IMG/VR virus record: IMGVR_UViG_2617270964_000009
Length of the DNA: 37,718 nucleotides
Reading direction: 5' to 3' (one strand)
Origin: a virus
Taxonomy: Duplodnaviria; Heunggongvirae; Uroviricota; Caudoviricetes
Position numbers and translations under genes: made by a program. This document shows, piece by piece, positions 3,332-36,710 of this stretch. The notes under the pieces were generated by a model that worked only from the letters and a program-made list of their open reading frames with translations, ran no database searches and was not told the origin of the DNA. Position 1 is the stretch's first letter; every line of letters begins with the position of its first letter.

Positions 3332-3906
3332 CTGCTCCCGTGGTTATAACTGCCATCATGGATGGCGGTATTGTTATAGCGAATGGCCACAGACTGATAC
3401 TCCAGGCTGGCCAGATGGCAGCGGGCCGGTGCAAATGCAGCCAGCGTCTGACGCAGCATCGCGGCCTGATCGTTAGTAATGGGCTGTTTCAGAATAACGC
3501 GATAAACTGCCCAGGCGGCTGCATCTCCATGAACAAACAGTCCGTTATAGCTGCGATTGCCGTCGTAACTGAGACGACCTGTGCCTTCAATCAGATCCAC
3601 TTCACCAAAGCCAAAACGGCGGATAACTTCCCGGATTGACCACGGCGTCCCTTTATACCGGTGCAGTTCGATGGCTGCTTTTATAAGCATGCGGCGAACA
3701 TCGTCCGATTCCGCCAGCTCCCAGCCATCGCCAGACAGTGAGAACTGCTCGCCCAGCCATGGCAGCGCGGAACTGTCGACGATATCGACGAGAAAGACCA
3801 TCAGTACGCTCAGGTCGATGTTATCCAGCCGTCCTGCCAGTCTTCCCAGCGTCCTGAGACTGATATCACCCTCAAGCGGTGGCGGGAGTTGTAATGGCTC
3901 AGTCAT
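3328..3906 (-). CDS. Tail protein, Mu gp48 / P2 gpI-like
   Basis: 192-aa ORF placed between the baseplate J-like gene and the fibre gene, ending 2 bp before the fibre start; assignment is by synteny. Confidence 0.55.
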   Translation of the reverse strand: MTEPLQLPPPLEGDISLRTLGRLAGRLDNIDLSVLMVFLVDIVDSSALPWLGEQFSLSGDGWELAESDDVRRMLIKAAIELHRYKGTPWSIREVIRRFGFGEVDLIEGTGRLSYDGNRSYNGLFVHGDAAAWAVYRVILKQPITNDQAAMLRQTLAAFAPARCHLASLEYQSVAIRYNNTAIHDGSYNHGSS

Positions 3907-5002
3907 CAGACACTCCAGTCATGTTAAGAGTGATTGCCGTACAGTTTGCCCATTCGTTTTCTGCCACCACCCGCAGTGCCGGTGTCACCAGTTCAACCTG
4001 GTACACCCCGGAAACGGACAATGCACTGATAATCTGGCTGGGGACAATATCGCGCCCCAGCGTGGCGGCACGTGATGCCACCCAGTTCTGTATGGCGCTG
4101 TTAGCGACATCTTTTACAGACCTGGCATCCTGATCACGATAGATCGTAATCCTGGCTTCAATGGTGTAATCCACCTTCACTGGTGTTTTAGCCCGCACTG
4201 TATCAGTGAGTGGCCTGACTTTCTCATCAGAGCAGAAACTCTCTACCAGCGTGAGAACACCGCCGTCCGGCAGACCGGTACTGAGCAGCGGATACAGATC
4301 TACGGTCCCGGGAACCGGGGAAAGCACAGCAACATCGACAATGTTGGGATGGGCCTGCATGGCATGAAAGCGGTATGCGCCACGGCTTCCGGCATTGGTG
4401 AATGACTCCGGGGCCAGTCTGATACGCTCCCGGAGCCTGTCATCGTCTTCCTGTTCTGAACCGCCGGAACTGGCCGTCAGATTGCTCACCAGCAGGTCGA
4501 CGTTATCAATCTCATCGAGTAACTGACTGACCTGCGCAGGTTGCCAGCCGTTACCAGCGGTACCGGGTTCGGTACAGGTGGACGTGACATTGACCAGCAG
4601 CAATCCGGCCTTCAGTACCACATCTGTATCGGTGGCAAAAATAACGCTGTCGGAAGCGCTGACGCGGGTGCCTGCCGGGATCAGCACATCAATGGCCAGT
4701 GCCTCATCTACGGAGAACTGGAGCGTGGTAGTGGCAGGCTGCGCGGCAAGACGGTATACACCGACCAGTTCACCGAGGTAATCAATCATCGGCTCACGGG
4801 CAAAGGCGACCAGATTCTGCTTTGCTGCCTCCTGTACCGCAACCCTGACCAGCATTTCGCGATAGGCCCACAGATCAATCAGCAGACGTTCTGCCTGTGC
4901 CGGGTACAGCGTTTTGCCGGTATCCACTTCATACTTCGCAATCATTTCTGCCGTGATTTTGTCGGCATCGCGTTCAATAAAATCGGGTTCTGTCAGCGCC
5001 AT
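3899..5002 (-). CDS. Baseplate J-like protein (Mu gp47 / P2 gpJ-like)
   Basis: 367-aa ORF in the conserved baseplate position; size and synteny fit the J family; overlaps its neighbours by a few bp. Confidence 0.75.
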   Translation of the reverse strand: MALTEPDFIERDADKITAEMIAKYEVDTGKTLYPAQAERLLIDLWAYREMLVRVAVQEAAKQNLVAFAREPMIDYLGELVGVYRLAAQPATTTLQFSVDEALAIDVLIPAGTRVSASDSVIFATDTDVVLKAGLLLVNVTSTCTEPGTAGNGWQPAQVSQLLDEIDNVDLLVSNLTASSGGSEQEDDDRLRERIRLAPESFTNAGSRGAYRFHAMQAHPNIVDVAVLSPVPGTVDLYPLLSTGLPDGGVLTLVESFCSDEKVRPLTDTVRAKTPVKVDYTIEARITIYRDQDARSVKDVANSAIQNWVASRAATLGRDIVPSQIISALSVSGVYQVELVTPALRVVAENEWANCTAITLNMTGVSDD

Positions 5003-5340
5003 AGCAGCTCCTGAGTCCGGGTCTGTCCGTCTGAGCCTTTCCAGCTCACCCGGAGCGTAAGATGTTCGCCGTCGACGGCGGGTTTAACTGACATAAGCTG
5101 GCAGCGGGGCTCCCAGCGCCTGATGGCATCGACGGATTCGCGCACCACATGCGGAATGGCCCGGTCTACAGGCCAGTCGATATAAAGATGCAGATTGCTG
5201 CCGAACTCCGGGCGATGCGGGTCGCTGCCGCGGGGAGTCCGCAGGATAATTTGAATCGCCTGCCGGATATCATCCAGCCCCCGGACAATTTCGCCGGGAG
5301 CCTGCAGGGCTGGTTGCCAGAATACTGAGGTCGTTTTCAT
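4993..5340 (-). CDS. Baseplate protein (Mu gp46 / P2 gpW / T4 gp25-like)
   Basis: 115-aa ORF between the V-like and J-like genes, the conserved position for the W/gp25 wedge protein. Confidence 0.65.
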   Translation of the reverse strand: MKTTSVFWQPALQAPGEIVRGLDDIRQAIQIILRTPRGSDPHRPEFGSNLHLYIDWPVDRAIPHVVRESVDAIRRWEPRCQLMSVKPAVDGEHLTLRVSWKGSDGQTRTQELLWR

Positions 5341-5394
5341 GGGGGCAGTATTGCCCCCGTGCGGGAACGCTGATATTAAAGGCGTTTAAGAAGC

Positions 5395-5991
5395 TCAGTG
5401 GGAGTGGTGGCTGGAGTTTTCGCCATCAGACAGCATACTGCCCGTGACATGGGCATTCCCTTTAATCTCGATATTGCCATGGATGGTCGCGGTAACACCT
5501 TTACCACCAGAACCCGCCATGCCTCCTTCGTAAATCAGCTTTCCCCTGACACGCAGATCTCCGGTAAGTTCGGTTTCCGGTGCGTCAATCGTGGCTTTCT
5601 GTGTTTTCAATACCACATCAGCACCACACTCAATGACAATATGCTCAATGCCGCCCCGGATGGTCAGAGTGTGCGTCTTCCGGTTGTAGCTGTACTCTGC
5701 ACCATCAGCAAACCGGGTTCCCCGGATATTTTTGTCACTGAACGGTGGTTTATCGACGTCTGAATACACCGCGCCCAGAATAACACCATCCTCGCCGTTG
5801 GCATCGAGCAGCACCTCAACCTGCTCCCCCACGTCAGGGAGCCAGTAATCTTTGTTATCCTGGGTATTGCGCTGCAGCACGTTAAGCCAGTTTGTGCGCA
5901 GGTTATCGCATTCAGGCAGACGAACGCGGGCCTGAACCCTGTCGGCATCAACGGCACTGACCGTACCGACCTGACGAGTGACACCAGTCAT
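5395..5991 (-). CDS. Baseplate assembly protein V / spike (Mu gp45-like)
   Basis: 198 aa with a glycine-rich C-terminus (GGMAGSGGKGVTATIHGNIEIKGNAHVTG) typical of gpV spike proteins. Confidence 0.7.
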   Translation of the reverse strand: MTGVTRQVGTVSAVDADRVQARVRLPECDNLRTNWLNVLQRNTQDNKDYWLPDVGEQVEVLLDANGEDGVILGAVYSDVDKPPFSDKNIRGTRFADGAEYSYNRKTHTLTIRGGIEHIVIECGADVVLKTQKATIDAPETELTGDLRVRGKLIYEGGMAGSGGKGVTATIHGNIEIKGNAHVTGSMLSDGENSSHHSH

Positions 5992-7142
5992 TTTTTCTTC
6001 TCCTTAATCACCGTCGATGTACTGCCATCCGGGTGATAAACCGTGAGTTTCTGAGTTTTTTGTTTTTTCCCTCTTGTGACTGGCCCCCGTGCCACTTCCA
6101 GCTCTGTGGTGTAGCCGCTGTTACGGTCAAACGCATGGCGGGCAGTGGTTATGAGCCATGGCCCGGATAACTGCCCAAAACCCACCAGTTCAATTTTGTT
6201 GCCTGCTGTCAGTTGAGGTGTTCCCGTCAGCGTCAGGGAGCCGTTCTGCTGGTATTCGTTATGTCTGGCCAGTGCTGAATCCGCTTTAATCCGGGCACTG
6301 TCCGGGTCGCTGACGCGGCTGTTAACTTTAAGTGAGTCAGCGCTGGTAACCTTACCACCTTTGAGCTTTTTGTCGCTTTCACGGGTACCACCATCAGCTT
6401 CGTAGACGATCAGTTTTTTACTGCTGCTTTTCTGGTGTTTTACCTTTGCAGATTTATAGACCCGATTGATGGTGTCACGCAGGGAAAAGCGGGCCACATC
6501 CTGCGGTTTTAACTGCCTGACCGGCTCCTGACTGCGCAGTGTGGCCAGATGAGAAAAAATCAGCTGGTCACTGACCACTTTCACTGCATAACCATACTCG
6601 CTGGCCAGCCGGCGCAGAAAACCCACGTCGGTTTCAGCATACTGGGTCACCCGGTCGATTCTGATGGACTCAATGCTGCCCACCAGTTTCAGTCGGTGCT
6701 TTCTGGCAATCCGCCCCGCAACAGCTGCCAGCGTGGTGTTCTCAAAACCACGACTGGTTTTAGTCCGCAGGGCACTGTTAACCGAGGTGGCCACCCCACG
6801 GATAGAAACAACGGAAGCGGGCGAACTCACTTCGATCTCGTCTATAGAGAACGTACCGCAGGACAGCAGCTTCTCGCCCTGATAGCCCATTTTCAGCGTC
6901 AGCGTGTCACCCTTGCCCGGATACCACTTATCCAGCCAGCGGCCATCGGTGTCGTCCAGCTCCACCTCAATGGTATCGGACTCATTTTTGATGTTATCGC
7001 TCCAGGTCACACGGGTGACATAAGGCGCGATATCAGAGGTGATGTTTTTCTGCAGATACCACAGAGTGAACACCGGTGTCAGCACATCGCTGACGCCGGT
7101 TAACGCTGATGTGACTTGCGCAGTGCTGTTTATCTCAGCCAT
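5988..7142 (-). CDS. Tail protein, Mu gp44(P) / P2 gpD-like (baseplate hub)
   Basis: 384 aa, close to the Mu P and P2 D sizes; sits between the tape-measure and spike genes. Confidence 0.7.
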   Translation of the reverse strand: MAEINSTAQVTSALTGVSDVLTPVFTLWYLQKNITSDIAPYVTRVTWSDNIKNESDTIEVELDDTDGRWLDKWYPGKGDTLTLKMGYQGEKLLSCGTFSIDEIEVSSPASVVSIRGVATSVNSALRTKTSRGFENTTLAAVAGRIARKHRLKLVGSIESIRIDRVTQYAETDVGFLRRLASEYGYAVKVVSDQLIFSHLATLRSQEPVRQLKPQDVARFSLRDTINRVYKSAKVKHQKSSSKKLIVYEADGGTRESDKKLKGGKVTSADSLKVNSRVSDPDSARIKADSALARHNEYQQNGSLTLTGTPQLTAGNKIELVGFGQLSGPWLITTARHAFDRNSGYTTELEVARGPVTRGKKQKTQKLTVYHPDGSTSTVIKEKKK

Positions 7143-25444: not shown

Positions 25445-26173
25445 ATGACGCACACACTGAATCCGGTCATCACTGTCACTGTGTCCGATCCTGTGGGCAG
25501 CGGTAAAAGTTACGTACTGGCGCGGATAGAAGAGATGGTGAAACAGGAACTCGGAAACAGCGTCATTGTCGATGCTGCTGACGTGGAGAATGAGCGCCGT
25601 ATGAATGGCGAAGATCTGACGACCTGGCAGAAGCCACGGGGTGGCACAGTGATCAGGCTGGAGGAATACACGGGACAGGGCCTGTTGTCATACGGCGAGG
25701 AGCGTATCTGTCGGACGAATGAGCTGCTGGATGTTATATGCCCCACGGGCCGGCAACCCTGGATACTGCCCGATGCACTGCATGCCACCATTGCGGCACT
25801 GATGACAGTTTACGATCAGGAGCTGCTCATGAAGGAGTTACGTAAACTCACCGGTCAGCCAACAGAATGTTGTTCGTCTCCGAAGTACGGCAAACAGGAA
25901 CACATCCCGATTAACCAGCCTCCCCGGTTCTTCGACGAATACCTTCTGACACCGGAAAATAAAGCTGAGCATGAAGAGATCAAAGCGGCGTTGTTCCGGG
26001 AAATCAGGAAGATTGCTGAAATGCAGTTGGGGGGCGGGCTGGACAGAGTGATGGCGAGAGGAGAATGGGCATCGCTGTTTGAAAGAGTTTCCCCGGAATT
26101 ACTTCCCCTCGCACTGGCTATCGGGATTATGCAGACAGCGGATAAACCTCACTTACGTTCATTAAACACGTAA
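25445..26173 (+). CDS. Hypothetical protein (242 aa) with a degenerate P-loop-like motif
   Basis: Strong RBS (GAGGAG, 7-nt spacing); N-terminal VTVSDPVGSGKSY resembles a Walker-A-like P-loop but is non-canonical; no other recognisable domain. Confidence 0.5.
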   Translation: MTHTLNPVITVTVSDPVGSGKSYVLARIEEMVKQELGNSVIVDAADVENERRMNGEDLTTWQKPRGGTVIRLEEYTGQGLLSYGEERICRTNELLDVICPTGRQPWILPDALHATIAALMTVYDQELLMKELRKLTGQPTECCSSPKYGKQEHIPINQPPRFFDEYLLTPENKAEHEEIKAALFREIRKIAEMQLGGGLDRVMARGEWASLFERVSPELLPLALAIGIMQTADKPHLRSLNT

Positions 26174-26553
26174 CGCATAATCCGGGATACGCATTCAGCG
26201 ATGACTGCATTTTCACCGGTTTTTACTGCATCCAGAAGTGACTCTTTAAATGGTACGGGCCGGGGCTGCAGAAAGGTCGGCATGGCATTGAGCAGACAGA
26301 GCGTTTTTTCCGTGAGGACGACATCAGCCGCTCCCACAGCCAGCAACTGAGAGTAACGAATATAGCTGTTATCCCGAAGCCATATCAGCGTATCAATAAA
26401 ACACCGGCACTTTTTCTGGTCGTGATCAACCTGGTCCGGGATATCGAAAAAACCAGAATAAATCAAAACCTGAGGTGCCGGATGCGTGTTCAGTAATCGG
26501 CAGAATATTTTGCCGGTGAGTACATAAAAATCATCATTTAAGGAGTGCATCAT
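26149..26553 (-). CDS. Hypothetical protein (134 aa)
   Basis: Starts ATGATG with GGGGA upstream; its 3' end overlaps the 242-aa ORF by 25 bp (convergent) and its start codon overlaps the 71-aa ORF start (divergent). Confidence 0.35.
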   Translation of the reverse strand: MMHSLNDDFYVLTGKIFCRLLNTHPAPQVLIYSGFFDIPDQVDHDQKKCRCFIDTLIWLRDNSYIRYSQLLAVGAADVVLTEKTLCLLNAMPTFLQPRPVPFKESLLDAVKTGENAVIAECVSRIMRYVFNERK

Positions 26554-26767
26554 GAATCCCCGATTAACGTTAACAGAACATCAGCGCCGTGCTGAAGCAG
26601 TGAACAATGTTCTGGAAGATATTATCCGGTTATACCGCGGAGAACTGAGTGTCTGTCGTGCCGCTTTTCATTTTCAGGGAATACAAAAGCAGTTTGATAC
26701 TTCTGTTTTTGCAGAAGGTATTACTTATGCCCTGGACCGGATAAGGTCAGAAAATCGCCCCGGATAA
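26552..26767 (+). CDS. Hypothetical small protein (71 aa)
   Basis: AAGGAG Shine-Dalgarno 6 nt upstream of the ATG; no recognisable motif. Confidence 0.4.
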   Translation: MNPRLTLTEHQRRAEAVNNVLEDIIRLYRGELSVCRAAFHFQGIQKQFDTSVFAEGITYALDRIRSENRPG

Positions 26768-26823
26768 TCCCTAAACCACATTAACAGAAATCCCGCCATC
26801 CCTGCCGCATCATGAAAGAACGA

Positions 26824-26851
26824 CCAGCCCGGCACCCGAAAGCCGGGCTGG
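26824..26851. other. GC-rich hairpin (ccagcccggc-acccgaaa-gccgggctgg) between the 71-aa ORF and dam
   Basis: Perfect 10-bp stem, 8-nt loop; no U-tract on the plus strand, so more likely an RNA structure or regulatory element than a canonical terminator. Confidence 0.35.
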
Positions 26852-26957
26852 TCATCGCCCCACAGGAATGCGCTGTGAGCCGACCAAGGTTCAGTCAGTC
26901 TCGCGAGACCTGACCAGACTGCCATATTTTTTAATAATTGTAAAAGGCTTACAGATT

Positions 26958-27725
26958 ATGAAAATGCAGACATTACCCATCGTGCCGTGGATTGGTGGCA
27001 AACGCCGCCTTGCAAAACACATTCTGCCGCTGTTTCCGGCGCATGAATGTTATGTGGAGCCGTTTTGTGGGGCAGCAGCGCTCTATTTTCTTAAGACACC
27101 CGGCAAGATCGAAGTCATCAATGATATCAACGGTGAACTGGTGAATCTGTACCGGGTGGTAAAGCATCACCTGGAAGAATTTGTCCGCCAGTTCAAATGG
27201 GCGCTGGTCAGCCGTCAGATCTACAAATGGCTGCAGATCACCCCGGAAGAAACACTGACGGATATCCAGCGTGCGGCACGGTTCTACTACCTCCAGAAGC
27301 AGGCGTTTGGTGGCAAGGTGGCAGAGCATAGTTTCGGCACCTCCACCACATCCCCGCCACGCTTCAACCTGCTGCGTATTGAGGAAGAGCTCTCAGCGGC
27401 ACACCTGCGACTTTCCAGAACGGTGATAGAACACATGGACTGGCAACAGTGCATTGAGCGTTATGACCGTCCGCACACGCTGTTCTACTGCGACCCACCG
27501 TACCTGGGTACGGAAGGCTATGGTGTGGATTTTCCTGAAGGGAACTACTCGCGGTTGGCAGAGCTGGCCCGTTGCATCAGAGGAAAGATGATTATATCGG
27601 TCAACGATATCCCGGAAATGCGGCAGGTTTTTAACGGTCTGAACATTCACTGTGTGAAGGTCAACTACAGTCTTGCAGGAAAGGGAACACTACGGCGCGA
27701 ACTTATTGTAAGTAATTTAGAGTAG
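26958..27725 (+). CDS. dam: DNA adenine methyltransferase, Dam/D12 class (N6-adenine)
   Basis: N-terminal PIVPWIGGKRRLAKHILPLFP, the AdoMet motif EPFCGAAALYF and the catalytic DPPY tetrapeptide (FYCDPPYLGTEGYG). Confidence 0.85.
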   Translation: MKMQTLPIVPWIGGKRRLAKHILPLFPAHECYVEPFCGAAALYFLKTPGKIEVINDINGELVNLYRVVKHHLEEFVRQFKWALVSRQIYKWLQITPEETLTDIQRAARFYYLQKQAFGGKVAEHSFGTSTTSPPRFNLLRIEEELSAAHLRLSRTVIEHMDWQQCIERYDRPHTLFYCDPPYLGTEGYGVDFPEGNYSRLAELARCIRGKMIISVNDIPEMRQVFNGLNIHCVKVNYSLAGKGTLRRELIVSNLE

Positions 27726-27750
27726 GCTCAGAAGGAGGTAAGTAGTCTTG

Positions 27751-27782
27751 CATAACAATGCACCTGATGGTGCATTGTTATG
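27751..27782. terminator. Perfect 14-bp stem / 4-nt loop hairpin between convergent dam and the RexB-like gene
   Basis: cataacaatgcacc-tgat-ggtgcattgttatg; overlaps the stop codon of the minus-strand gene and is followed by a moderately T-rich stretch on the plus strand. Confidence 0.4.
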
Positions 27783-28215
27783 ATATCACTTTGATTATAT
27801 TGAATAATCGCCTACCTGTTTGTAATAAACACAACATAGACATAACAACAAGCCCAATGAGGATAGCGGCTACAATCTCTTGATGCTTACTTTGCAGCAT
27901 CAACCCAATCAAACATGTCAACACCAACACTAGCAAAACTAAGCAAGTGTAGAATGCATCGGTCATCAGACGCTTGTAATGTCCGGTTTTTTGCATGTTT
28001 TTAAGTAACGGTTTATCAAGCAATGATGCAAGTAGTGCAATTGCTGTAATAATAAAACCTAACAACGTTGCAAAGACACTGGACAATGTAGTCATGAAGT
28101 TTGGGATTGCGGCTACTGGCATATGGGGCAACTTGAACCAGTAGAGAAAACCAATCCCACATCCAATCAATAAACTAAGCAATAGGGCCGAGTTCATCTT
28201 CTCCAATATATGCAT
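27778..28215 (-). CDS. RexB-like four-TM membrane protein (about 145 aa)
   Basis: Start taken at ATG 28215 (GGGAGAG Shine-Dalgarno, 5-nt spacing); four hydrophobic helices; the TLSSVFATLLGFIITAIALL segment resembles lambda RexB TM2 as recalled from memory; last gene of the repressor operon; low GC. Confidence 0.55.
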   Translation of the reverse strand: MHILEKMNSALLLSLLIGCGIGFLYWFKLPHMPVAAIPNFMTTLSSVFATLLGFIITAIALLASLLDKPLLKNMQKTGHYKRLMTDAFYTCLVLLVLVLTCLIGLMLQSKHQEIVAAILIGLVVMSMLCLLQTGRRLFNIIKVIS

Positions 28216-29068
28216 TGATACTCTCCCGGTTTTCAGCATACGCAGTATCGATTAGACGGTACATGGTTTCGGCTGGAGGGAAACGAGCGTCAGTAACTAC
28301 CGATTGATAGGACGAAATACGCTCGGCAATCAAATCCACAGGATGGACAACACCATCAGCATCGAACACATCAATTACAGCCTTTTTCGCCCCAAACTCG
28401 ACTAACTCTTGCATAGCAAATTTTATATTCTGCTTAAGCCTACCATCACTATCGCCACGGCGAGTATTAATCCCCATTACAATTTGCATTGTATCGGCAC
28501 CTGCATCACCAAGCAGTTGTAGTGTCTTTTGACTGAAATCAGTATCAGGGTAAAACTCAGGATTACGGGGGCGAGGAATCGTCAACTGGATTTTTTTCAT
28601 TTTGACATCTCCTCTCATAAGCCTAGCGATTGCATCTTTTTCCAGCAAAGGTGCGGGCTTAACCTTTGAACCAAAGATAGTTGAAAGAAATGCACTAAAA
28701 CGGCTTATACCACAAGCCATATGATTATAGTGCCAACCTATAACATTGATTCGAGGATAGAATACAAAGAAATTGCGCTCAATGATCCCTTCATCCTTGG
28801 CAAGTGGAATAGGGGTAGACTGTTTCCCTGGTGCACCTTTATCCGGAATGTTCGAGTTGCGAAATTTTCTCAACTCTCCACTAAAAGAACCATCCGCGCG
28901 TTTTTTCAACCCCCAAATTTCTCTAGTAAAACCCTCATGGTTTGAAGAGGAAGGGCTCTGTTTATCAATTACAGATTGAAAAGCATCTCCGAGATTTGCC
29001 AGCTGATCTGTGGCCTTAAACGATAGCTGATGAAACTCAATACGATAATTTCTCACATCACCACTCAT
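28175..29068 (-). CDS. RexA-like protein (297 aa), partner of the membrane protein
   Basis: AAGGA Shine-Dalgarno; sits directly downstream of the CI-like repressor in the same orientation; size near lambda RexA (279 aa); low GC. Homology is unverified. Confidence 0.5.
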   Translation of the reverse strand: MSGDVRNYRIEFHQLSFKATDQLANLGDAFQSVIDKQSPSSSNHEGFTREIWGLKKRADGSFSGELRKFRNSNIPDKGAPGKQSTPIPLAKDEGIIERNFFVFYPRINVIGWHYNHMACGISRFSAFLSTIFGSKVKPAPLLEKDAIARLMRGDVKMKKIQLTIPRPRNPEFYPDTDFSQKTLQLLGDAGADTMQIVMGINTRRGDSDGRLKQNIKFAMQELVEFGAKKAVIDVFDADGVVHPVDLIAERISSYQSVVTDARFPPAETMYRLIDTAYAENRESINAYIGEDELGPIA

Positions 29069-29139
29069 ACGATTAATCCTTAACGCGGAAAGTTCAGATG
29101 GTTAGTGCAAACAGCACATCCTACTGTTTAAATCAGCGC

Positions 29140-29170
29140 ATATAACGAAGAGGTTTGATAACCTTGTCAA
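29140..29170 (-). promoter_or_regulatory. Candidate sigma70 promoter for the rexA/rexB-like genes (TTGACA-19 nt-TTATAT on the minus strand)
   Basis: Found in the 122-bp gap between the repressor stop and the rexA-like start; the spacer is 19 nt, which is long. Confidence 0.25.
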
Positions 29171-29190
29171 TTGTTCTCATTGGGAATAGA

Positions 29191-29607
29191 TTAACCCACA
29201 TTTTTTAACCGCTCAATCGTTGCGGATAATTCCTTCAGTTGTTTTTCCATCTCGATCACTCGCTGTTTTTCCGCAGCGCCTCGCAGAAGATCGTTACGAA
29301 CCTCGGGGTCTAGCTGCTTTAAAAGCTCAAGCATAGTAAGGTCAGCTTGGCTAAACTGCACTTGCGTCGGAGTTACGTCTACTTCTTTTGATAAACCTTG
29401 TTTTCTACCTGTTAGCAACCAATCTAAAGAAACCCCCTTTTCTTCTGCGATGTTTATGCAAATTGCATAAGGCACAGAATCACGCTTCCTCCAACTTGCA
29501 AGTGTCTGCCTATTGACGTTAAGCGCTCTTGCCAACTCACTATCATTCTCTGCTTGGAATAGTGACATTAACCGGGAAAGCACAGCGTTAACATCTTTGT
29601 TATTCAT
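29191..29607 (-). CDS. CI-like prophage repressor (HTH; no peptidase domain)
   Basis: SELARALNVNRQTLASWRKRDSVPYAICINIAEEKGVSLDWLLTG is the phage CI-repressor HTH signature; coiled-coil C-terminus; divergent from the ner-like gene. ATG at 29607 preferred over the track's upstream start at 29622. Confidence 0.75.
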   Translation of the reverse strand: MNNKDVNAVLSRLMSLFQAENDSELARALNVNRQTLASWRKRDSVPYAICINIAEEKGVSLDWLLTGRKQGLSKEVDVTPTQVQFSQADLTMLELLKQLDPEVRNDLLRGAAEKQRVIEMEKQLKELSATIERLKNVG

Positions 29608-29637
29608 TTTGCGTAATTCCACTTGATTTATTTATTT

Positions 29638-29657
29638 TGAATAAGTACATTTATTCA
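29638..29657. promoter_or_regulatory. Operator-like palindrome in the repressor/ner divergent control region
   Basis: tgaataa-gtacat-ttattca (perfect 7-bp arms); AGTACAT recurs 19 bp downstream at 29663-29669; the whole region is AT-rich. Confidence 0.3.
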
Positions 29658-29695
29658 TATTGAGTACATGATAACCCAACTGGAACTATCCGCAT

Positions 29696-29920
29696 ATGAA
29701 TAAACAACAAGTTCGGGCACGACTAGTTGAACGAGGCAGTAGCTTGCGCCAGTTCGCGCTTAACGCAGGCTATGAGCCACGAACAGTCACACAGGCAGTC
29801 AGTCGCTGGGCTGGTAAAAGTGAACTACCACGTGGTCGTTTGACTTATCGGATTTTGCGAGATCTATCGGTTGCAATAGGTAAAGAAGTTACCCCCGGTA
29901 TCCTTAAGGAGGTGTCATGA
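29696..29920 (+). CDS. ner: Ner-like DNA-binding protein (Cro analogue of Mu-like phages)
   Basis: 74 aa; SLRQFALNAGYEPRTVTQAVSRWAG matches the Ner family pattern; first gene of the rightward early operon, divergent from the repressor. Confidence 0.65.
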   Translation: MNKQQVRARLVERGSSLRQFALNAGYEPRTVTQAVSRWAGKSELPRGRLTYRILRDLSVAIGKEVTPGILKEVS

Positions 29921-30225
29921 ATAAACCAAATACATCAAGCGCAGGTACCCGTATTTTGCGTGTTCTTAAGGCGTTACGTGGCCACGCTCTGAACGGTATC
30001 TCCAACGGTGAACTGGCGGCAGCACTGCACGAGTCACCAGCAAACATTAATCGGGCACTCAACACCCTCATTGAAGAAGGGCTGGCCCTGAAACTGGAGA
30101 ATGGACGTTTTGCACCGGGCATCCAGTTACTGCAGATCGCCATGGCTCACAGTAACGAGATGGCACGAGCGCAGGATCGTATTAACGAAATCAACCAACG
30201 TGTCATTTCAGGTAGTCGTTTATAA
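29917..30225 (+). CDS. Putative winged-helix DNA-binding protein (102 aa)
   Basis: AAGGAGG Shine-Dalgarno; start overlaps the ner stop; GISNGELAAALHESPANINRALNTLIEEGLA looks like an HTH. Confidence 0.45.
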   Translation: MNKPNTSSAGTRILRVLKALRGHALNGISNGELAAALHESPANINRALNTLIEEGLALKLENGRFAPGIQLLQIAMAHSNEMARAQDRINEINQRVISGSRL

Positions 30226-30235
30226 GGAGTAATCA

Positions 30236-31147
30236 ATGGGACGTACCAAATCACCAATGTCCACTGATCTGAATGCTGAGGTGCCGCTGTCTGATGATCT
30301 CAACATCAGTCTTAATACCATGGCACAACACCGCGTGGAGATCATGCAGCAGTTCGGCGATGGTCTGCCTTATGAACGTGATCGCATTGTTCACGAAGCA
30401 CGCTTTTATATGGCACAAAGTGCTGAGGCCATGCTAGAGGCAGGTAAACGACTGATAATACTGAAAGAAAATGAACCACATGGTGATTTCATAAATATTG
30501 TCGAGTCTGAATTATCAATGTCAAAGCGTACTGCACAGGTAATGATGCAGGCATCAATAAAATATTTATCACCACAACTTGAGTCAAAAGCGCAGACGTT
30601 TGCGCTTTTAGGAAAAGCCAAATTATTCGAGTTAATGACGGAAGACGATGAAAACCTTGCCGAACTGGCTGATGGTGGCACTGTTGCCGGCCTGACGCTT
30701 GACGACGTTGATCGCATGTCAGTACGCGAACTTCGCCAGGCCCTGCGCGAAGCGCGCGAAACCAACGCAGCACAACAGCGCGTACTCGCCGATAAAAATG
30801 AAAAAATTGATTCTCTCTCTACCAGACTGGAAAAGAAATCCCGTATTCAGCCGCCTGAGCCTGATGAGGAGGTTAAGAAGCTGCGGGCGGAAGTGACAGC
30901 ATTAGCGGTTGAGGCGGAATCTGCTATCGCCGTCCGACTGTCCAGCGCTTTTGAGACACTGTGCGCATATTGTGCTGAAAACATGATTGATACCCCCAGA
31001 GACTTCATGGCAGGCCTGGTCTGTCAACTGGAAAGCACAGCGCGTAGCCTGCGCTCCACATTTGACCTGCCGGACGAGCCAACAGGCAATGCAGCGCCTT
31101 CATGGCTGACTGAGCCGACGCCACAGATTAACGGGCTGGAGGCATAA
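30236..31147 (+). CDS. Hypothetical early protein (303 aa), acidic with coiled coil
   Basis: AGGAG Shine-Dalgarno; immediately upstream of the transposase; no recognisable catalytic motif. Confidence 0.45.
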   Translation: MGRTKSPMSTDLNAEVPLSDDLNISLNTMAQHRVEIMQQFGDGLPYERDRIVHEARFYMAQSAEAMLEAGKRLIILKENEPHGDFINIVESELSMSKRTAQVMMQASIKYLSPQLESKAQTFALLGKAKLFELMTEDDENLAELADGGTVAGLTLDDVDRMSVRELRQALREARETNAAQQRVLADKNEKIDSLSTRLEKKSRIQPPEPDEEVKKLRAEVTALAVEAESAIAVRLSSAFETLCAYCAENMIDTPRDFMAGLVCQLESTARSLRSTFDLPDEPTGNAAPSWLTEPTPQINGLEA

Positions 31148-31150
31148 CCA

Positions 31151-32920
31151 ATGAATGCTGCCCTGACTGAACGACTGGTTTATGTCGCCCGCGCGGCACG
31201 TGACGCGGGGCATGGTAAACGCGGTGCAATATACGACGCTGCCTGTGCTGAACTTGGCATGTCCCGCGCCACTCTGCTGCGCAGGCTGAAGGAGGTCTCT
31301 GTGACTGATAAACGCAAAAAACGCGCCGATGCCGGGCGCAGCGCCCTGACCCGCGACGAAGCCGCGCTGATATCTGCCACACTGCGTGAGGCCACCCGCA
31401 AGAACGGTAAGCGTCTCTATTCCATCGCGGATGCAGTGGAAACCCTGCGGGCTAACGGCTTTATCTCCGCAGGCAGAACAGATGAAACCACCGGTGAGTT
31501 TTTCCCGTTGTCCGAAGATGCCATCAGCCGTGCCCTGCGTAACTATGGCCTGCACCCGGAACAACTGGATGCCCCTGCGCCGCATACCGAAGTGGCCAGT
31601 CTGCATCCCAATCATGTCTGGCAGATTGATGCCTCGCTCTGCACGCTTTACTACCTGAGCAATGGACACAAAGGGCTGCAGGTGATGGACAGCGCGAAAT
31701 TCTACAAGAACAAGCCCGCTAACCTTGCCCGTATCGCCAGTGACCGCGTGTGGAGTTATGAGATTACCGACCATGCCAGCGGCTGGATTTACGTTGAGTA
31801 TGTGACGGGTGCGGAATCCGGTGAGAACCTGTGTTCTGTGCTTATCAACGCCATGCAGGAGCGTGGCGGCGCAGACGTGCTGCACGGCGTGCCAAAAATA
31901 CTCTATCTCGACCCCGGCTCGGCAAACACCGCGGGTATGACGAAAAACATGTGCCGCTCACTGGGCATTGACCTGATAGCGCACAAGCCGCATAACGCCC
32001 GCGCCACCGGACAGGTGGAAAAGGCGCGAGACATTATCGAACGCAAGCTGGAGCCGGGTCTGAAGTTCCGGCCGGTTCACAGTCTGGAAGAACTCAACGC
32101 GCTGGCCGCGAAATGGCGCAGCCACTTTAACGCCACGGCTGTTCACAGCCGCCACGGTAAAACCCGCACGGATATCTGGCTGAAGATTACTACTGAGCAG
32201 CTGAAAAAAGCGCCTTCCGTTGAGGTATGTCGTGAACTGGCTGTGGCGGCACCAGAACTCCGCAAAGTCACGCCAAAACTTCGTGTCTCGTTCCGGGGCA
32301 CTGAATTTGACGTATCAACGGTACCGGGCGTACTGGTCGGTGAAAAACTGATGATTACCCGTAACCCGTGGCGCAGCGATGTGGCACAGGTGGTTCTGAC
32401 CGGTGAGGACGGCCACGAGACGTTCTTCCTGGTCGAAGAGGTCAGAAAGAACGAGTTTGGCTTTGCTGAAGGCGCGGCGGTATTTGGCGAAAGTTACAAA
32501 GCCCTGCCGGAAACACCGGCGCAGACGGCGGCAAAAGAAACTGAAGCGCTGGTCACCGGTACAGACAACGCCACAGATGCAGCTGTCGCACGCAAGGCGA
32601 AGGCGCTGCCGTTCGGCGGGCGGCTTGACCCGTATAAACATATTGATGACGCCACACTTCCGGCCTATATGCCGAAGCGCGGTCAGGCCTCTGACGTACG
32701 CGGGCCGCGCACTGAACAACGTCCCATGACTCATGTGGAGGCCGCGAAAGCCCTGCGCGATAAGTTCAGCGCCGACGGCCTTACCTGGACGCCGGAACAT
32801 TACCGCCAGTTAACGGCACAGTACCCGGACGGCGTACCGGAAGCCGCACTGGATGAAGTCATGGCCACGCTGACCACACCGGCCCGCAGCAGTGTTATCA
32901 GCATTGTTAACGGCAACTGA
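31151..32920 (+). CDS. DDE transposase (Mu A / TnsB / rve-superfamily)
   Basis: Candidate DDE triad: D in VWQIDAS, D in ILYLDPGSAN, E about 35 aa later in ATGQVEKARD; followed by an AAA+ ATPase gene as in MuA-MuB; GGAGG Shine-Dalgarno. Confidence 0.75.
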   Translation: MNAALTERLVYVARAARDAGHGKRGAIYDAACAELGMSRATLLRRLKEVSVTDKRKKRADAGRSALTRDEAALISATLREATRKNGKRLYSIADAVETLRANGFISAGRTDETTGEFFPLSEDAISRALRNYGLHPEQLDAPAPHTEVASLHPNHVWQIDASLCTLYYLSNGHKGLQVMDSAKFYKNKPANLARIASDRVWSYEITDHASGWIYVEYVTGAESGENLCSVLINAMQERGGADVLHGVPKILYLDPGSANTAGMTKNMCRSLGIDLIAHKPHNARATGQVEKARDIIERKLEPGLKFRPVHSLEELNALAAKWRSHFNATAVHSRHGKTRTDIWLKITTEQLKKAPSVEVCRELAVAAPELRKVTPKLRVSFRGTEFDVSTVPGVLVGEKLMITRNPWRSDVAQVVLTGEDGHETFFLVEEVRKNEFGFAEGAAVFGESYKALPETPAQTAAKETEALVTGTDNATDAAVARKAKALPFGGRLDPYKHIDDATLPAYMPKRGQASDVRGPRTEQRPMTHVEAAKALRDKFSADGLTWTPEHYRQLTAQYPDGVPEAALDEVMATLTTPARSSVISIVNGN

Positions 32921-32930
32921 GGAGGGAAAC

Positions 32931-34097
32931 ATGCTGGTACTGAAGCAGCAACTGAAAGAGGCCCGTATTCCACAGGCGGTGGTGGCGAGAGCTGTCGATG
33001 TTTCTGAGGCCACGCTGGCCCAGATTGTGAATCATAACGCGTGGCCCCGCACCAGCCCCGGAGAAGTGCGCCGGCGTCTTGCGTCCTGGCTGGAAAGTCA
33101 GGGGATTGATACAACGAAGAGTTTTGATGCTGTACAGGGCGCGGCCACGCCCCGTACAGCGGGTACCACAGATAAAACGAGCCTCAGTGAGGAAGAGAAT
33201 ATGTTACTCAAAAAACAGGTGTTATTTCCAGCAACCAAAAAAGCGTTTGGTCTTTTCCGTGACCCGTTCGCCGACGAAGCCATGCAGGGTTCTGATGATG
33301 TGTTCACCACCCCGGATATTCGCTACGTGCGTGAGGCGTTGTACCAGACAGCCCGTCATGGTGGGTTTATGGCCGTCATCGGTGAGTCCGGTGCGGGTAA
33401 ATCCACGCTGCGCCGCGACCTGACTGAACGTATCAACCGCGAGAATGCGCCGGTAATTGTTATCGAGCCATACATCATCGCTATGGAAGACAACGATGTG
33501 AAAGGGAAAACCCTGAAGGCAGCAGCGATTGCCGAAGCCATTATCAGTACCATCGCACCACTGGAAAGCATCAGACGCAGTCAGGACGCCCGCTTTCGCC
33601 AGTTGCATCGCGTCCTGAAAGACAGCAGCCAGGCGGGGTTCAGCCACGTTCTGGTGATTGAGGAGGCCCACAGTCTGCCCATTCCGACACTGAAACACCT
33701 CAAACGCTTTTTTGAGCTGGAGTCCGGTTTCAAAAAACTGCTGTCCATCGTGCTGATTGGCCAGCCGGAACTGGCGACAAAACTGTCTGAACGCAATATG
33801 GAAGTCCGTGAAGTCGTTCAGCGCTGTGAGGTGGTCGAACTTCTGCCTCTGGACAATAACCTTGAAGAGTTTCTGACGTTCAAACTGCAACGGGCCGGTA
33901 AACAACTGACGGACATTATGGACGCCAGCGCAGTGGATGCCATACGTGCCCGCCTGAGCAATCCGGGAAGTCATCGTAAAAATATGGTCAGCCTGCTGTA
34001 TCCGCTGGCCGTCAGTAACCTGGTAATAGCCGCCATGAATCTGGCCGCTGAAATCGGGGTTCCACAGGTCAACGCTGACGTTGTCAAAGGGGTTTAA
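32931..34097 (+). CDS. Transposition ATPase (Mu B analogue; TniB/ExeA-type AAA+)
   Basis: Walker A in VIGESGAGKSTL and Walker-B-like VLVIEEAH; start at ATG 32931 with a GGAGGG Shine-Dalgarno. Confidence 0.75.
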   Translation: MLVLKQQLKEARIPQAVVARAVDVSEATLAQIVNHNAWPRTSPGEVRRRLASWLESQGIDTTKSFDAVQGAATPRTAGTTDKTSLSEEENMLLKKQVLFPATKKAFGLFRDPFADEAMQGSDDVFTTPDIRYVREALYQTARHGGFMAVIGESGAGKSTLRRDLTERINRENAPVIVIEPYIIAMEDNDVKGKTLKAAAIAEAIISTIAPLESIRRSQDARFRQLHRVLKDSSQAGFSHVLVIEEAHSLPIPTLKHLKRFFELESGFKKLLSIVLIGQPELATKLSERNMEVREVVQRCEVVELLPLDNNLEEFLTFKLQRAGKQLTDIMDASAVDAIRARLSNPGSHRKNMVSLLYPLAVSNLVIAAMNLAAEIGVPQVNADVVKGV

Positions 34098-34099
34098 TA

Positions 34100-34369
34100 A
34101 TGAAATCCACCACAGGTATCAACCAGCAAATCAGCAAAGTGCAGTCAGCCATTATGGCGCTTAAGGCGACGAACACGGATGTACAAAGCATCACCATCAG
34201 GGGTAACAAACCTGTCATCCGCGTTTCCCGGAGTGCGCATTGCATGCGCATGCTTGAGCAGGGAAAGGCCTGTTATCTGTATACCGGTCATGACCACAGG
34301 GGACATTTCCGTCAGGGCGTTTTCGAACTGCACGGCTGTCGCGTCGTGTGGCCGGAATCTTTGTGGTAA
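34100..34369 (+). CDS. Hypothetical early protein (89 aa)
   Basis: Good RBS; translationally coupled to the upstream ATPase; no recognisable motif. Confidence 0.4.
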   Translation: MKSTTGINQQISKVQSAIMALKATNTDVQSITIRGNKPVIRVSRSAHCMRMLEQGKACYLYTGHDHRGHFRQGVFELHGCRVVWPESLW

Positions 34370-34396
34370 TCAGCACAACAGGAGGAGTCATAAAAT

Positions 34397-34927
34397 ATGG
34401 CAAAAAGTACAAAAGGGGCAAAACGTATCAAAGCCGCAGCAGCACTCTGGGTGCCGGGGACACGCGAAGAGGTCATTGAGGGAATCAGACTGCTTGGTGA
34501 CGCGCAACGTGAACTGGTCAGGGCTGAAACAGAAATGAATGACACCATTGGCGACATCACTGCACGTTATGCCCCGCTCACCGAGAGCCTGAAAAAACGC
34601 ATGGCCGAACTGCAGTCCGGTATCCAGACATGGTGTGAGGCGCACCGTGATGAACTGACCGGCAACGGGAAGGTGAAGTTCGCTAACCTCACCACCGGCG
34701 AGGTGCAGTGGCGAAACCGTCCGCCATCAGTCAGTATCCGTGGGGCGGATAATGTTATTGAATTACTGAGACGTCTGGGGCTTGAGCGCTTTATTCGTGT
34801 AAAAGAGGAAATAAATAAAGACGCTATCCTGAATGAAAAAGAGGCCGTGAAAAATATTCCCGGTATTTCCATTAAAAGCGACATTGAGGATTTTTCAATA
34901 ATTCCTTTTGAGCAGGATGTGCAGTAA
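34397..34927 (+). CDS. gam: Host-nuclease inhibitor protein Gam (Mu Gam family)
   Basis: 176 aa; MAKSTKGAKRIKAAAALWVP...NRPPSVSIRGADNVIELLRRLGLERFIRVKEEINKDAIL...IEDFSIIPFEQ is nearly colinear with Mu Gam (174 aa) as recalled from memory. Confidence 0.85.
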   Translation: MAKSTKGAKRIKAAAALWVPGTREEVIEGIRLLGDAQRELVRAETEMNDTIGDITARYAPLTESLKKRMAELQSGIQTWCEAHRDELTGNGKVKFANLTTGEVQWRNRPPSVSIRGADNVIELLRRLGLERFIRVKEEINKDAILNEKEAVKNIPGISIKSDIEDFSIIPFEQDVQ

Positions 34928-35024
34928 ACACACCACGTTAATTATTTAATAAAAACATTTTCTTTTTTATTCCGGCGTCAGCGCCGTGGGCTTCTGCACG
35001 CCGGAAACAGAGGAGAATTAAATT

Positions 35025-35219
35025 ATGATATTTAAATGTATTCAGTGCGAGAGGGATATAACAGCCCTGCGTTTTCACAGCGCCATCGCCGTGATGTCCG
35101 GTAAATACCACATCCCTGCGGTACGCGTCACCCTGGTCTGTCCGTACTGCAGCCAGCATTTTTCGGCGGACGTGCCCGTCATGGAATTCTCCCGCCCTGA
35201 CAGGGAGGACGCGCAATGA
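35025..35219 (+). CDS. Small zinc-ribbon protein (CxxC...CxxC), 64 aa
   Basis: Cysteine pairs C5/C8 and C39/C42; GAGGAG Shine-Dalgarno. Confidence 0.45.
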   Translation: MIFKCIQCERDITALRFHSAIAVMSGKYHIPAVRVTLVCPYCSQHFSADVPVMEFSRPDREDAQ

Positions 35220-35488
35220 TTACCCCACAGGAAGCACGACAGCGCACCCGAACCCTTGTTGAACACTATGTCAACGAGTGTGAATGCCGCGACCTCACCG
35301 ATGTGAAGCACGTCCTGACGGCGTTAATCAGCATGGCCGCTCAGGCCATTGTGGCAACCAACGGAAAGGCGGCTGCCCTGCAGGTACTGATGAACACACT
35401 CACCCACACGGCAGAGCACGAGGTGCCGTACCGGGTGGAAACCACTGCAGAAGGCGGCCTGAACATCACCGTCGACCGGAAACACTGA
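35216..35488 (+). CDS. Hypothetical early protein (90 aa)
   Basis: ATGA start/stop overlap with the upstream gene; no recognisable motif. Confidence 0.4.
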   Translation: MITPQEARQRTRTLVEHYVNECECRDLTDVKHVLTALISMAAQAIVATNGKAAALQVLMNTLTHTAEHEVPYRVETTAEGGLNITVDRKH

Positions 35489-35497
35489 GGGCGCGGC

Positions 35498-35803
35498 ATG
35501 ACACGGAACACCGAACTCACCCGCACCGCCCTCTACCGTCTGGCCCTGCAGCGTTTCGGTCCGGATGCACAGGCCCTGAAACTGACAGAAGAGGCCGCTG
35601 AACTGGCGGCCAGTGCTGCCCGCAACCTGAACGGACAGGGCAGCGAAAGTGACCTCGCGGCAGAGCTGGCAGACGTGGAAATCATGACAGAGCAGCTGCG
35701 CCTTCAGGGGATGGACCGGCTGATTGACTTCCACAAACAGAAAAAACTGGAACGCCTTGCCGCACGGCTGGGCGTCATGTACACCGGAGATACTGAACAA
35801 TGA
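35498..35803 (+). CDS. MazG-like nucleotide pyrophosphohydrolase domain protein (101 aa)
   Basis: TEEAAELAASAAR ... SDLAAELADVEIMTEQL matches the paired EExxE / ExxD metal-binding helices of the MazG/HisE all-alpha NTP-PPase fold; GAGGG Shine-Dalgarno. Confidence 0.5.
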   Translation: MTRNTELTRTALYRLALQRFGPDAQALKLTEEAAELAASAARNLNGQGSESDLAAELADVEIMTEQLRLQGMDRLIDFHKQKKLERLAARLGVMYTGDTEQ

Positions 35804-36483
35804 CAGACCAGGATAAACACATTGAGAAACTGAAAAAGTTGCTGGCGCTGGCCGCATCCGGCAACCCTCACGAGGCCGCTCTGGCACTGCGCCGCGCCCG
35901 TAAACTGATGGATGTTCACGGCATCACACATTCCGACATCGCCATGAGTGATATTGATGAAACCATCAGTCACTACTGGCCGACAGGCAGCCTCCGTCCG
36001 CCGCGCTACATGCAGGGCCTGATGAACATCATCCGCGAGGCATTTGGTGTTAACTCCATCATTCACCCCGGCACATATCCGGGTGTGGGGTTCTACGGCA
36101 ACCGGGAACGGGCCGCACTGGCCGCGTACACCTGGGAAGTGCTGGCCCGTCAGCTGAAAAAGGCGCGTCAGCAGTATATCAGTGCACAGAACAAAAGAAT
36201 AAAAACCGCCACCCGCACCAGCCGTGGAGACCAGTTTGCTGAAGGCTGGGTGCTGGCCGTTATCAGTGAAATACAGTCCTTCGCCTTGACCGATGACGAA
36301 CGTGAACTGATGCAGCAGTGGCTGGAACATAAATACCCGCAGACGCAAACCACCAGGGCGCGTAAACCGGGAAGAAGTCGCAATGGCGACGCCTCGCGCT
36401 ATGCGGGGTTTCGAGAAGGGCAGAACGTCAGACTGCACCGACCGGTCAGTGGGCGGGAACAGCAGAAACTGGAGGCCAGATGA
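35800..36483 (+). CDS. Hypothetical early protein (227 aa), DUF2786-like N-terminus
   Basis: N-terminal HIEKLKKLLALAASGNPHEAALALRRARKLMDVHGI motif; start overlaps the upstream stop; preferred over the antisense ORF 35704..36438. Confidence 0.45.
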   Translation: MTDQDKHIEKLKKLLALAASGNPHEAALALRRARKLMDVHGITHSDIAMSDIDETISHYWPTGSLRPPRYMQGLMNIIREAFGVNSIIHPGTYPGVGFYGNRERAALAAYTWEVLARQLKKARQQYISAQNKRIKTATRTSRGDQFAEGWVLAVISEIQSFALTDDERELMQQWLEHKYPQTQTTRARKPGRSRNGDASRYAGFREGQNVRLHRPVSGREQQKLEAR

Positions 36484-36710
36484 TTACGTTATCAGGTAAC
36501 AGCCGGAAATTAAAAGCCTGCCGAATATCTGCCAGATACCTTTTTGCCCGCGCCTTTTTTAAGAACGTCAGGCCGGGGATCACAATTGGTGTTATTGCCG
36601 GACGCGAACAGGTTGAAAAATACATGTCAGGTGCATGGTGGAATAAAGACCCTGTCATTGCTGCCCGTAATATTCATATCAGTTGGGGGGATATTCAGAA
36701 TGACGGCTGA
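36480..36710 (+). CDS. Hypothetical small protein (76 aa)
   Basis: GGAGG Shine-Dalgarno; translationally coupled. Confidence 0.35.
   Translation: MITLSGNSRKLKACRISARYLFARAFFKNVRPGITIGVIAGREQVEKYMSGAWWNKDPVIAARNIHISWGDIQNDG

Follow-up and report, generated by a model that had tools for sequence, protein, structure and literature searches.

The window analysed here, a 37,718-nucleotide stretch of viral DNA (IMG/VR record IMGVR_UViG_2617270964_000009), is in its entirety a BcepMu-like (Bcepmuvirus) transposable prophage, and it carries a DNA methyltransferase gene beside its immunity region (Table 1). We interpret this gene as the orphan D12-class enzyme of enterobacterial BcepMu-like prophages, an allele of M.EcoMIV, which would methylate the phage's own DNA for protection during the lytic phase; we put the probability of this reading at about 0.55. 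An original prediction from the sequence had described a complete Dam-type adenine methyltransferase convergent with a rex-like operon, had named anti-restriction, gene regulation and packaging control as roles that it could serve, and had suggested that it may be the modification partner of a restriction-like activity nearby.

An intact orphan D12 methyltransferase

The open reading frame (ORF) of the methyltransferase is uninterrupted and encodes 255 amino acids (aa), and RefSeq places WP_016238312.1, a 'DNA adenine methylase', on identical coordinates. The Pfam D12-class profile PF02086 matches the protein from end to end (E 8.2e-30; 104.8 bits, cutoff 22 bits; profile positions 1-252 of 253), confirming its original description as a complete member of this class. 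The protein also gave a full-length match to the REBASE-derived Type II methyltransferase model of PADLOC (E 1e-112) and matched PHROG 56, 'DNA methyltransferase'. The start at 26958 is supported by an ATGAAA that is conserved in seven plus eight related prophages. A longer frame of 285 aa from the ATG at 26868, which is annotated in Escherichia phage PhiKM, was rejected, because a 1-nt insertion or deletion leaves it out of frame or stopped in other prophages.

Of the two motifs that had been predicted, the catalytic DPPY of motif IV is present and is invariant in an alignment of 18 family members. The other, a literal FxGxG, was not found; motif I reads FCGAAA, that is FxGxA, which is the usual form in the subfamily (family consensus EPFxGxA). 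G38 is invariant and F36 nearly so in the same alignment, and all 22 of its invariant columns are kept in the window's enzyme. Motif I (residues 36-41), the recognition segment (~85-140) and motif IV (179-182) follow one another in the order of the alpha class. An AlphaFold model computed with the 18-sequence alignment as input had a mean predicted local distance difference test score (pLDDT) of 87.3. In Foldseek searches it matched EcoDam (E 1e-16, template modelling (TM) score 0.77-0.81), DpnM (TM score 0.77) and T4 Dam (TM score ~0.67), and M.CbeI superposed on it at a TM score of 0.79-0.83. The profile match, motif IV, the order of motif I and the Dam/DpnM fold, the latter taken from the model, all place the protein in the D12 class. 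By sequence and predicted fold, the gene encodes an intact D12 DNA amino-methyltransferase. Its family comprises 666 clusters at 50% identity (E <= 1e-30). At least seven relatives are giants of 1000-2500 aa, each with two to four separate matching stretches.

The gene is already catalogued, through its RefSeq annotation and through a REBASE-named, 95%-identical allele with a published description. EC958, the reference strain of sequence type 131 (ST131), has the same BcepMu-like prophage between aroA and ycaL, and this prophage encodes a single methylase, WP_000783854.1. Published coordinates put the invertible tail-fibre segment of the EC958 prophage Phi2 at 1005540-1007607 (PMC4134206). This segment lies inside the aroA-ycaL prophage, and since WP_000783854.1 is the sole methylase there, it is M.EcoMIV (EC958_1101). 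The window's enzyme is 94.9% identical to M.EcoMIV over 254 aa. The two proteins are identical to residue ~220, and all 13 differences fall within the final ~35 residues; they stem from exchange of the immunity/cargo module, one breakpoint of which falls in the 3' end of the gene. The two loci share the position of the gene, the BcepMu-like backbone, the D12 domain and the upstream leader; they differ in that the slot downstream of the methyltransferase is empty in Phi2, whereas here it holds a RexAB-like pair of genes (hereafter the cassette). M.EcoMIV has been described as a D12 orphan carried on prophages, with 100% identity among >80 E. coli genomes, and REBASE classes it as a putative asymmetric-site enzyme (PMC4659465). 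In sequence type 101, prophage 'Dam-like orphans of unknown specificity' have likewise been described.

The methyltransferase and its leader were found as a module in 546 of 5426 complete E. coli genomes (about 1 in 10), the pandemic ST131 lineage included, whereas the whole stretch 26400-30300 with the cassette occurs in only 23. Two variable cargo slots flank the gene, one on the side of the lysis genes and one on the side of the repressor. The repressor-side slot is empty in EC958 and Ecol_AZ153, contains genes for a nucleoid-associated-protein homologue (335 aa) and a 401-aa protein in M-17 and AREA_C483, and contains a 175-aa or an 88-aa gene in loci of proteins assigned by their sources to Salmonella and Yersinia. 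The methyltransferase is missing from BcepMu and from a prophage of E. coli strain Eco889 that is equivalent in other respects, indicating an accessory gene that is frequent but dispensable. For the genes flanking the methyltransferase, no nuclease, Pfam or PADLOC match was obtained. A linked, co-occurring endonuclease, as expected of a Type II restriction-modification system, was not found, and both flanks differ among the prophages that bear the gene. The methyltransferase is an orphan, inherited independently of whatever fills either slot, the RexAB-like pair included.

Target recognition and GATC content

The name 'Dam-type' holds at the level of fold and family, and GATC specificity should not be assumed from the sequence. 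With the NCBIfam Dam equivalog NF008152 the protein scored 71.5 bits, far short of the 441 required, and it only just exceeded the threshold of the wider dam subfamily model TIGR00571 (116.5 against 114.85 bits). In phmmer searches the nearest solved structures by sequence were DpnM (E 1.2e-17) and EcoDam (E 2.5e-16), and M.CbeI also matched (E 1.8e-12). The enzyme shares with EcoDam and DpnM (2G1P, 4RTJ, 2DPM) the fold, the motif order, the DPPY, a GGK N-terminal motif and the length of the recognition segment, but it is only 23-26% identical to them. EcoDam is moreover encoded by a chromosomal housekeeping gene, whereas the gene here is prophage-borne and accessory.

The recognition segment differs from that of EcoDam at residues used there for reading GATC. 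In that enzyme K9, L122, R124 and P134 are reported by Horton et al. (2006) to make the base contacts, and N120 to intercalate. EcoDam and DpnM have in common the hairpin [FY]-N-G-L-x-R-x-N, whereas alignments to both agree in placing F117-G-G-K-V-A-E-H124 at this position in the window's enzyme (AFGGKVAEHSFGTSTTSPPRFN over residues 116-137). N120, L122, R124 and P134 of EcoDam align to G118, K120, A122 and S132/P133, and K9 is replaced by P10; this set of GATC-reading residues is thus not conserved. The R137/Y138 pair of EcoDam is kept as R135/F136, and the segment matches the EcoDam hairpin in length. Of this segment, only F117, G118 and the F126-G127 pair are widely conserved among 86 family members. 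Confidence in the model is lowest here, where residues 120-122 fall below a pLDDT of 50.

M.CbeI (7M6B) is an alpha-class DPPY enzyme that is as near in fold and sequence as the adenine enzymes, but it methylates cytosine at N4 and is needed to transform C. bescii with E. coli DNA. D12-like membership by itself therefore determines neither the sequence nor, strictly speaking, the base that is methylated. The failed equivalog model, the divergent hairpin, the loss of K9 and the equal closeness in fold to M.CbeI all argue against reading 'Dam-type' in the original prediction as GATC specificity. Judged by its sequence, the enzyme probably does not read its target as EcoDam reads GATC, and its recognition sequence may be other than GATC.

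We also examined GATC content. GATC occurs 93 times in the prophage where 179 are expected, and this observed/expected ratio of 0.52 is the lowest of the 16 four-base palindromes. The ratio is 0.54 in EC958 Phi2 and 1.02 in BcepMu, which has a Burkholderia host. A stretch of 5.9 kb (30710-36578) in the early region, with the transposase, MuB and Gam genes, is free of GATC, at a prophage mean of 2.5 GATC/kb. The title of a reference cited in the literature ascribes GATC depletion in enterobacteriophages to methyl-directed mismatch repair. Phage T1, tried as a control with its own Dam, gave a ratio of 0.78; its enzyme has NPPY and lacks DPPY, so this comparison is only loosely informative. In our view, such depletion would not be expected of a phage whose own enzyme methylates its GATC sites efficiently.

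Conserved leader and proposed role

A 145-bp leader travels with the methyltransferase. Similarity to prophages that lack the upstream genes starts at 26812-26813, and the leader is near-invariant in seven heteroimmune prophages and in 12 additional species of Enterobacterales that were recovered in a search with a 21-nt seed. An intact downstream ORF was found in 8 of these 12 loci, and its product shares only 82-87% identity with the window's enzyme; the leader is more conserved than the methyltransferase coding sequence. Because the leader is conserved while the repressors differ, control of the gene cannot come from the immunity repressor. The leader is also devoid of GATC sites, the nearest lying at 26424 and 27107, so that control by Dam and OxyR as at the mom promoter is not indicated.

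Three elements were distinguished in the leader. A GC-rich hairpin at its left edge folds at -28.9 kcal/mol (z -6.5) and shows compensatory changes at two stem positions among relatives. Its T-rich tail (GTTCTTTCA) is found on the minus strand only, and the hairpin may be a leftward terminator. Further downstream lies a perfect palindrome, GTCTCGCGAGAC, which is invariant in all relatives and which also served as search seed for the 12 further species. It is the sole exact copy in the window, and copies with <=3 mismatches are no commoner than in shuffled sequence. A 9-bp helix is predicted between 26872-26880 and the Shine-Dalgarno region at 26945-26953 (CUGUGAGCC with GGCUUACAG). Of the predicted structures, the first hairpin alone has backing from covariation. 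The helix over the ribosome-binding site does not vary among the relatives, and covariation therefore speaks neither for nor against it. The only hit of an Rfam search of 26400-28000, to rli40, scored 14.9 bits where the gathering score is 100, and is not meaningful. A common Mor/C-type activator box was rejected as a candidate, as there was neither a shared 11-mer nor an above-chance second copy of the palindrome.

In the role that we favour, the methyltransferase would be kept low in the lysogen and switched on from its own leader in lytic development. Replicating phage DNA would then be methylated on adenine at a short motif, and the progeny would resist adenine-methylation-sensitive restriction in the next host. 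The enzyme would then protect its phage as Mom protects Mu and as Hia5/Hin1523 protect FluMu-type phages. In the EC958 lysogen, transcription of M.EcoMIV was significantly lower than that of dam by reverse transcription PCR, and no methylation motif was assignable to it (PMC4659465). The FluMu-type prophages have non-specific adenine methyltransferases at the mom position, which protect DNA from many restriction enzymes (PMC3299994). These enzymes (Hia5, Hin1523 and Nma1821) are the best anti-restriction precedent, as genes of the adenine methyltransferase type in transposable Mu-like prophages without mom (PMC3299994). They differ in location, since they occupy the mom position (directly after com in SuMu), whereas the gene here is internal, between the lysis genes and the repressor. 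SuMu gp53, which was chosen by position and annotation to represent the Hia5 family, has only the neighbourhood of the DPPY in common with the window's enzyme. Membership in this family was rejected on a BLASTP E value of 0.02 and a score for SuMu gp53 of 23 bits on the D12 model. No com or mom genes are annotated in the Phi2 or PhiKM prophage copies. Mom itself may share the purpose of late anti-restriction DNA modification and has its own elaborate, conserved control region, as the leader here appears to be; its protein and chemistry are unrelated, Mom being responsible for adenine carbamoylmethylation under the control of Dam, OxyR, C and Com. A bolder version, which we consider unlikely though conceivable, is that the enzyme has a non-GATC or relaxed motif and is a lytic replacement for Mom in the enterobacterial BcepMu-like phages, silenced in the lysogen and gated by the leader, with the palindrome GTCTCGCGAGAC and the helix over the ribosome-binding site providing a second, independent solution to the gating at transcription and translation that C and Com provide for mom in Mu.

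Several points weigh against a lytic, self-protecting role or against a non-GATC target. The anti-restriction role is an analogy and not a result: the gene is neither at the mom position nor preceded by com, and its product is unrelated in sequence to the Hia5-type SuMu enzyme. No recognition site is known for M.EcoMIV homologues of >65% identity (PMC4659465). No 11-mer at <=1 mismatch is common to the leader and seven other intergenic regions, which included the region upstream of the lysis genes (assumed to hold the late promoter), two late-region gaps and the regions upstream of the early genes and of the repressor. The uniqueness of the palindrome in the window likewise leaves control by the Mor-type activator unsupported. 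As for the target, the TIGR00571 'dam' subfamily cutoff is passed, if narrowly, and GATC avoidance can have other causes. T4 Dam reads GATC with different N-terminal contacts, so the divergence of the hairpin does not exclude GATC.

It is worth weighing whether the enzyme is a true Dam isozyme that tops up GATC methylation on fast-replicating phage DNA, and so avoids MutH nicking or DpnII/MboI-type restriction or allows growth in Dam-deficient hosts. We regard this as doubtful, yet as an alternative to be taken seriously. The subfamily threshold is passed, but the equivalog model is failed by a wide distance (71.5 against 441 bits). The closest solved structures by sequence, DpnM and EcoDam, are GATC enzymes; in fold, however, the protein is equally near M.CbeI, an N4-cytosine enzyme of GGCC specificity. 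The recognition segment has the length of that of EcoDam and aligns R135/F136 with R137/Y138, but P10, G118, K120 and A122 stand where EcoDam has K9, N120, L122 and R124. Databases and Forde et al. (PMC4659465) term the enzyme a 'Dam homolog', whereas REBASE files M.EcoMIV as a putative asymmetric-site enzyme. The strong GATC avoidance, with its ratio of 0.52 and the 5.9-kb GATC-free stretch, also speaks against an isozyme, as an argument from expectation and not from a measured rule.

Other roles appear less probable than either a self-protecting enzyme or a Dam isozyme. The enzyme could be an epigenetic regulator of the lysogen, whose low-level methylation of phage or host promoters holds lysogeny or sets the induction frequency. 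The gene does adjoin the immunity region, and the prophage methylase gp51 of Burkholderia cenocepacia H111 could not be deleted with the prophage present; its authors propose that it maintains lysogeny through promoter methylation (bioRxiv 10.1101/2020.03.09.983379), a comparison by role. This role is nevertheless improbable for the window's enzyme, as M.EcoMIV is transcribed significantly below dam in the lysogen, no extra methylated motif was seen in the EC958 genome, equivalent prophages without the gene are apparently stable, and the leader is common to prophages with different repressors and operators and is thus not wired into one immunity system. A non-specific adenine methyltransferase of the Hia5/Hin1523/M.EcoGII kind, giving blanket protection against restriction, is quite improbable. 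Mu-like prophages are the known home of such enzymes, and the recognition segment is poorly conserved across the family and, in the model, poorly ordered, as might be expected if it made few base-specific contacts. The similarity to the com-linked SuMu enzyme is confined, however, to the level of the DPPY, the D12 model gives 105 bits here against 23 for SuMu, and the genomic position differs. The Hia5 family is also only remotely related to Dam (Drozdz et al., PMC3299994), whereas the window's enzyme aligns to it directly.

That the methyltransferase is the protective partner of the adjoining two-gene cassette, in the manner of restriction-modification or of a toxin and its antidote, is barely credible. 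Adjacency and the convergent arrangement are all that speaks for it, against a count of 546 genomes with the methyltransferase and 23 with the cassette-containing stretch. Neither EC958 nor Ecol_AZ153 has any gene in the slot, other genes occupy it in the M-17, Salmonella and Yersinia prophages, and the cassette occurs elsewhere, beside a Q antiterminator gene and in a CbtA/CbeA island, without a D12 enzyme. This variability and these other locations rule out the modification-partner relationship that had been suggested. The cassette proteins are RexA/RexB-like and not nuclease-like, and a recombination breakpoint separates them from the methyltransferase.

Exchanged module, Rex-like operon and prophage context

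DNA homology of the window to EC958 Phi2, PhiKM and Ecol_AZ153 breaks off at 27682 and is regained at 29917-29959, indicating that the immunity region is exchanged together with any cargo, as a single block. The exchange occurs between prophages that are otherwise ~97-98% identical. Its second breakpoint lies inside a gene of the IclR-type helix-turn-helix family, and the methyltransferase is left with a mosaic C-terminus.

The methyltransferase is convergent with the leftward operon, in which the repressor gene (29191-29622) is followed by the 297-aa gene (28175-29068) and the membrane-protein gene (ORF 27778-28239), and the predicted perfect 14-bp hairpin does lie between the two units. Its arms (27751-27764 and 27769-27782) are 100% complementary and enclose a 4-nt loop. 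Folding z-scores were -3.6 on the plus strand and -4.7 on the minus strand, better than 200 of 200 shuffles on both. The hairpin overlaps the stop codon of the membrane-protein gene and is part of the cargo module. As neither flank carries a T-run, it does not qualify as a textbook intrinsic terminator. A different perfect hairpin stands at the same convergent junction in each other copy of the cassette and in each prophage variant. The location of the 14-bp hairpin in the swapped module, and the presence of a hairpin of its own in every variant, led us to reject it as a methyltransferase-specific feature; the best reading is a common 3'-end or terminator structure that separates convergent units.

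The designation of this operon as rex-like stands on predicted structure, membrane topology and gene order, and does not extend to significant sequence similarity. As in lambda cI-rexA-rexB, the repressor, RexA-like and RexB-like genes lie in this order on the same strand, so that a protein with the RexA fold and a four-transmembrane partner of ~144 aa are co-oriented downstream of a CI repressor. The hydrophobic segments of the 145-aa protein (7-25, 47-65, 89-107 and 113-131) are placed almost identically to those of lambda RexB (8-26, 42-60, 84-102 and 116-134), and the BLASTP alignment of the two is colinear but not significant (E 0.38). Sequence searches with the cassette proteins against PDB, PADLOC, Pfam and NCBIfam returned nothing, and the relationship to RexA is seen through structure prediction alone. 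Five other loci with the 297-aa gene were examined, among them a lambdoid prophage where it lies beside the Q antiterminator and the CbtA/CbeA island. A partner of ~145 aa follows the gene in four of these and is not called in the fifth; a D12 enzyme is absent from all five. Foldseek ranked RexA first and RdgC next for the RexA-like protein. The match to RdgC suggests that the pair in the M-17-type slot, the nucleoid-associated homologue (5113-6120 in that locus's own numbering) and the 401-aa protein (3905-5110), may be another Rex-like pair of DNA-binding protein and effector.

From left to right, the prophage has tail, head and lysis genes on the minus strand, followed by a short accessory region and the methyltransferase. 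The leftward repressor operon comes next, and then a rightward early operon that encodes a DDE transposase, a MuB-like ATPase and Gam and, at the right end of the window, a Mor-type activator. PhiKM is 98.5% identical over 83% of the first 25 kb of the window, and the chromosome of E. coli Ecol_448 is 100% identical to 26400-30300. A Gin-type invertase gene and repeated tail-fibre segments at the left end (1-653 and 2161-2929) correspond to the invertible tail-fibre switch of EC958 Phi2 (PMC4134206). The cargo slot between the holin gene and the methyltransferase (25445-26767) varies among prophages. It holds genes for proteins of 242, 134 and 71 aa here (PHROGs 3787, 2266 and 4490); elsewhere it contains a DUF2441 protein or an 'ABC transporter ATPase' fragment, or is empty.

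Table 1. Features of the methyltransferase locus and its surroundings (window coordinates; AdoMet, S-adenosylmethionine)
Feature	Position	Strand	Basis
Orphan alpha-class D12 DNA amino-methyltransferase, 255 aa, WP_016238312.1, M.EcoMIV allele	26958..27725	+	Pfam, NCBIfam, PADLOC, PHROG; AlphaFold/Foldseek
Motif I (AdoMet binding), F36-C-G-A-A-A41	27063..27080	+	Read from sequence
Motif IV, catalytic DPPY, residues 179-182	27492..27503	+	Read from sequence
Counterpart of the EcoDam DNA-recognition beta-hairpin, residues 116-137	27303..27368	+	phmmer alignments to EcoDam, DpnM
Conserved 145-bp leader or promoter region travelling with the methyltransferase	26813..26957	+	Similarity onset; conservation
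12-bp perfect GC-rich hairpin, left module edge	26822..26853	.	Inverted-repeat and RNA-fold analyses
Perfect palindrome GTCTCGCGAGAC, candidate protein-binding site	26898..26909	.	Unique, invariant
Swapped immunity/cargo module; left breakpoint in last ~14 methyltransferase codons	27683..29916	.	Homology breaks
Perfect 14-bp hairpin between convergent genes	27751..27782	.	Inverted-repeat and folding analyses
RexB-like small membrane protein, 145 aa (RefSeq start); ORF open to 28239 (153 aa)	27778..28215	-	Hydrophobic segments
RexA-like protein, DUF6731 family, 297 aa	28175..29068	-	
CI-type repressor heading the leftward operon	29191..29622	-	PF07022 Phage_CI_repr, E 1.2e-17; RefSeq 29191-29607

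These results bear on how such genes are read in other genomes. An annotation as 'Dam' does not imply GATC, and an adjoining defence-like cassette does not imply partnership. Methylomes of lysogens are blind to the enzyme because the gene is barely expressed there, and a target motif, if found, would be assigned to a very widespread family.

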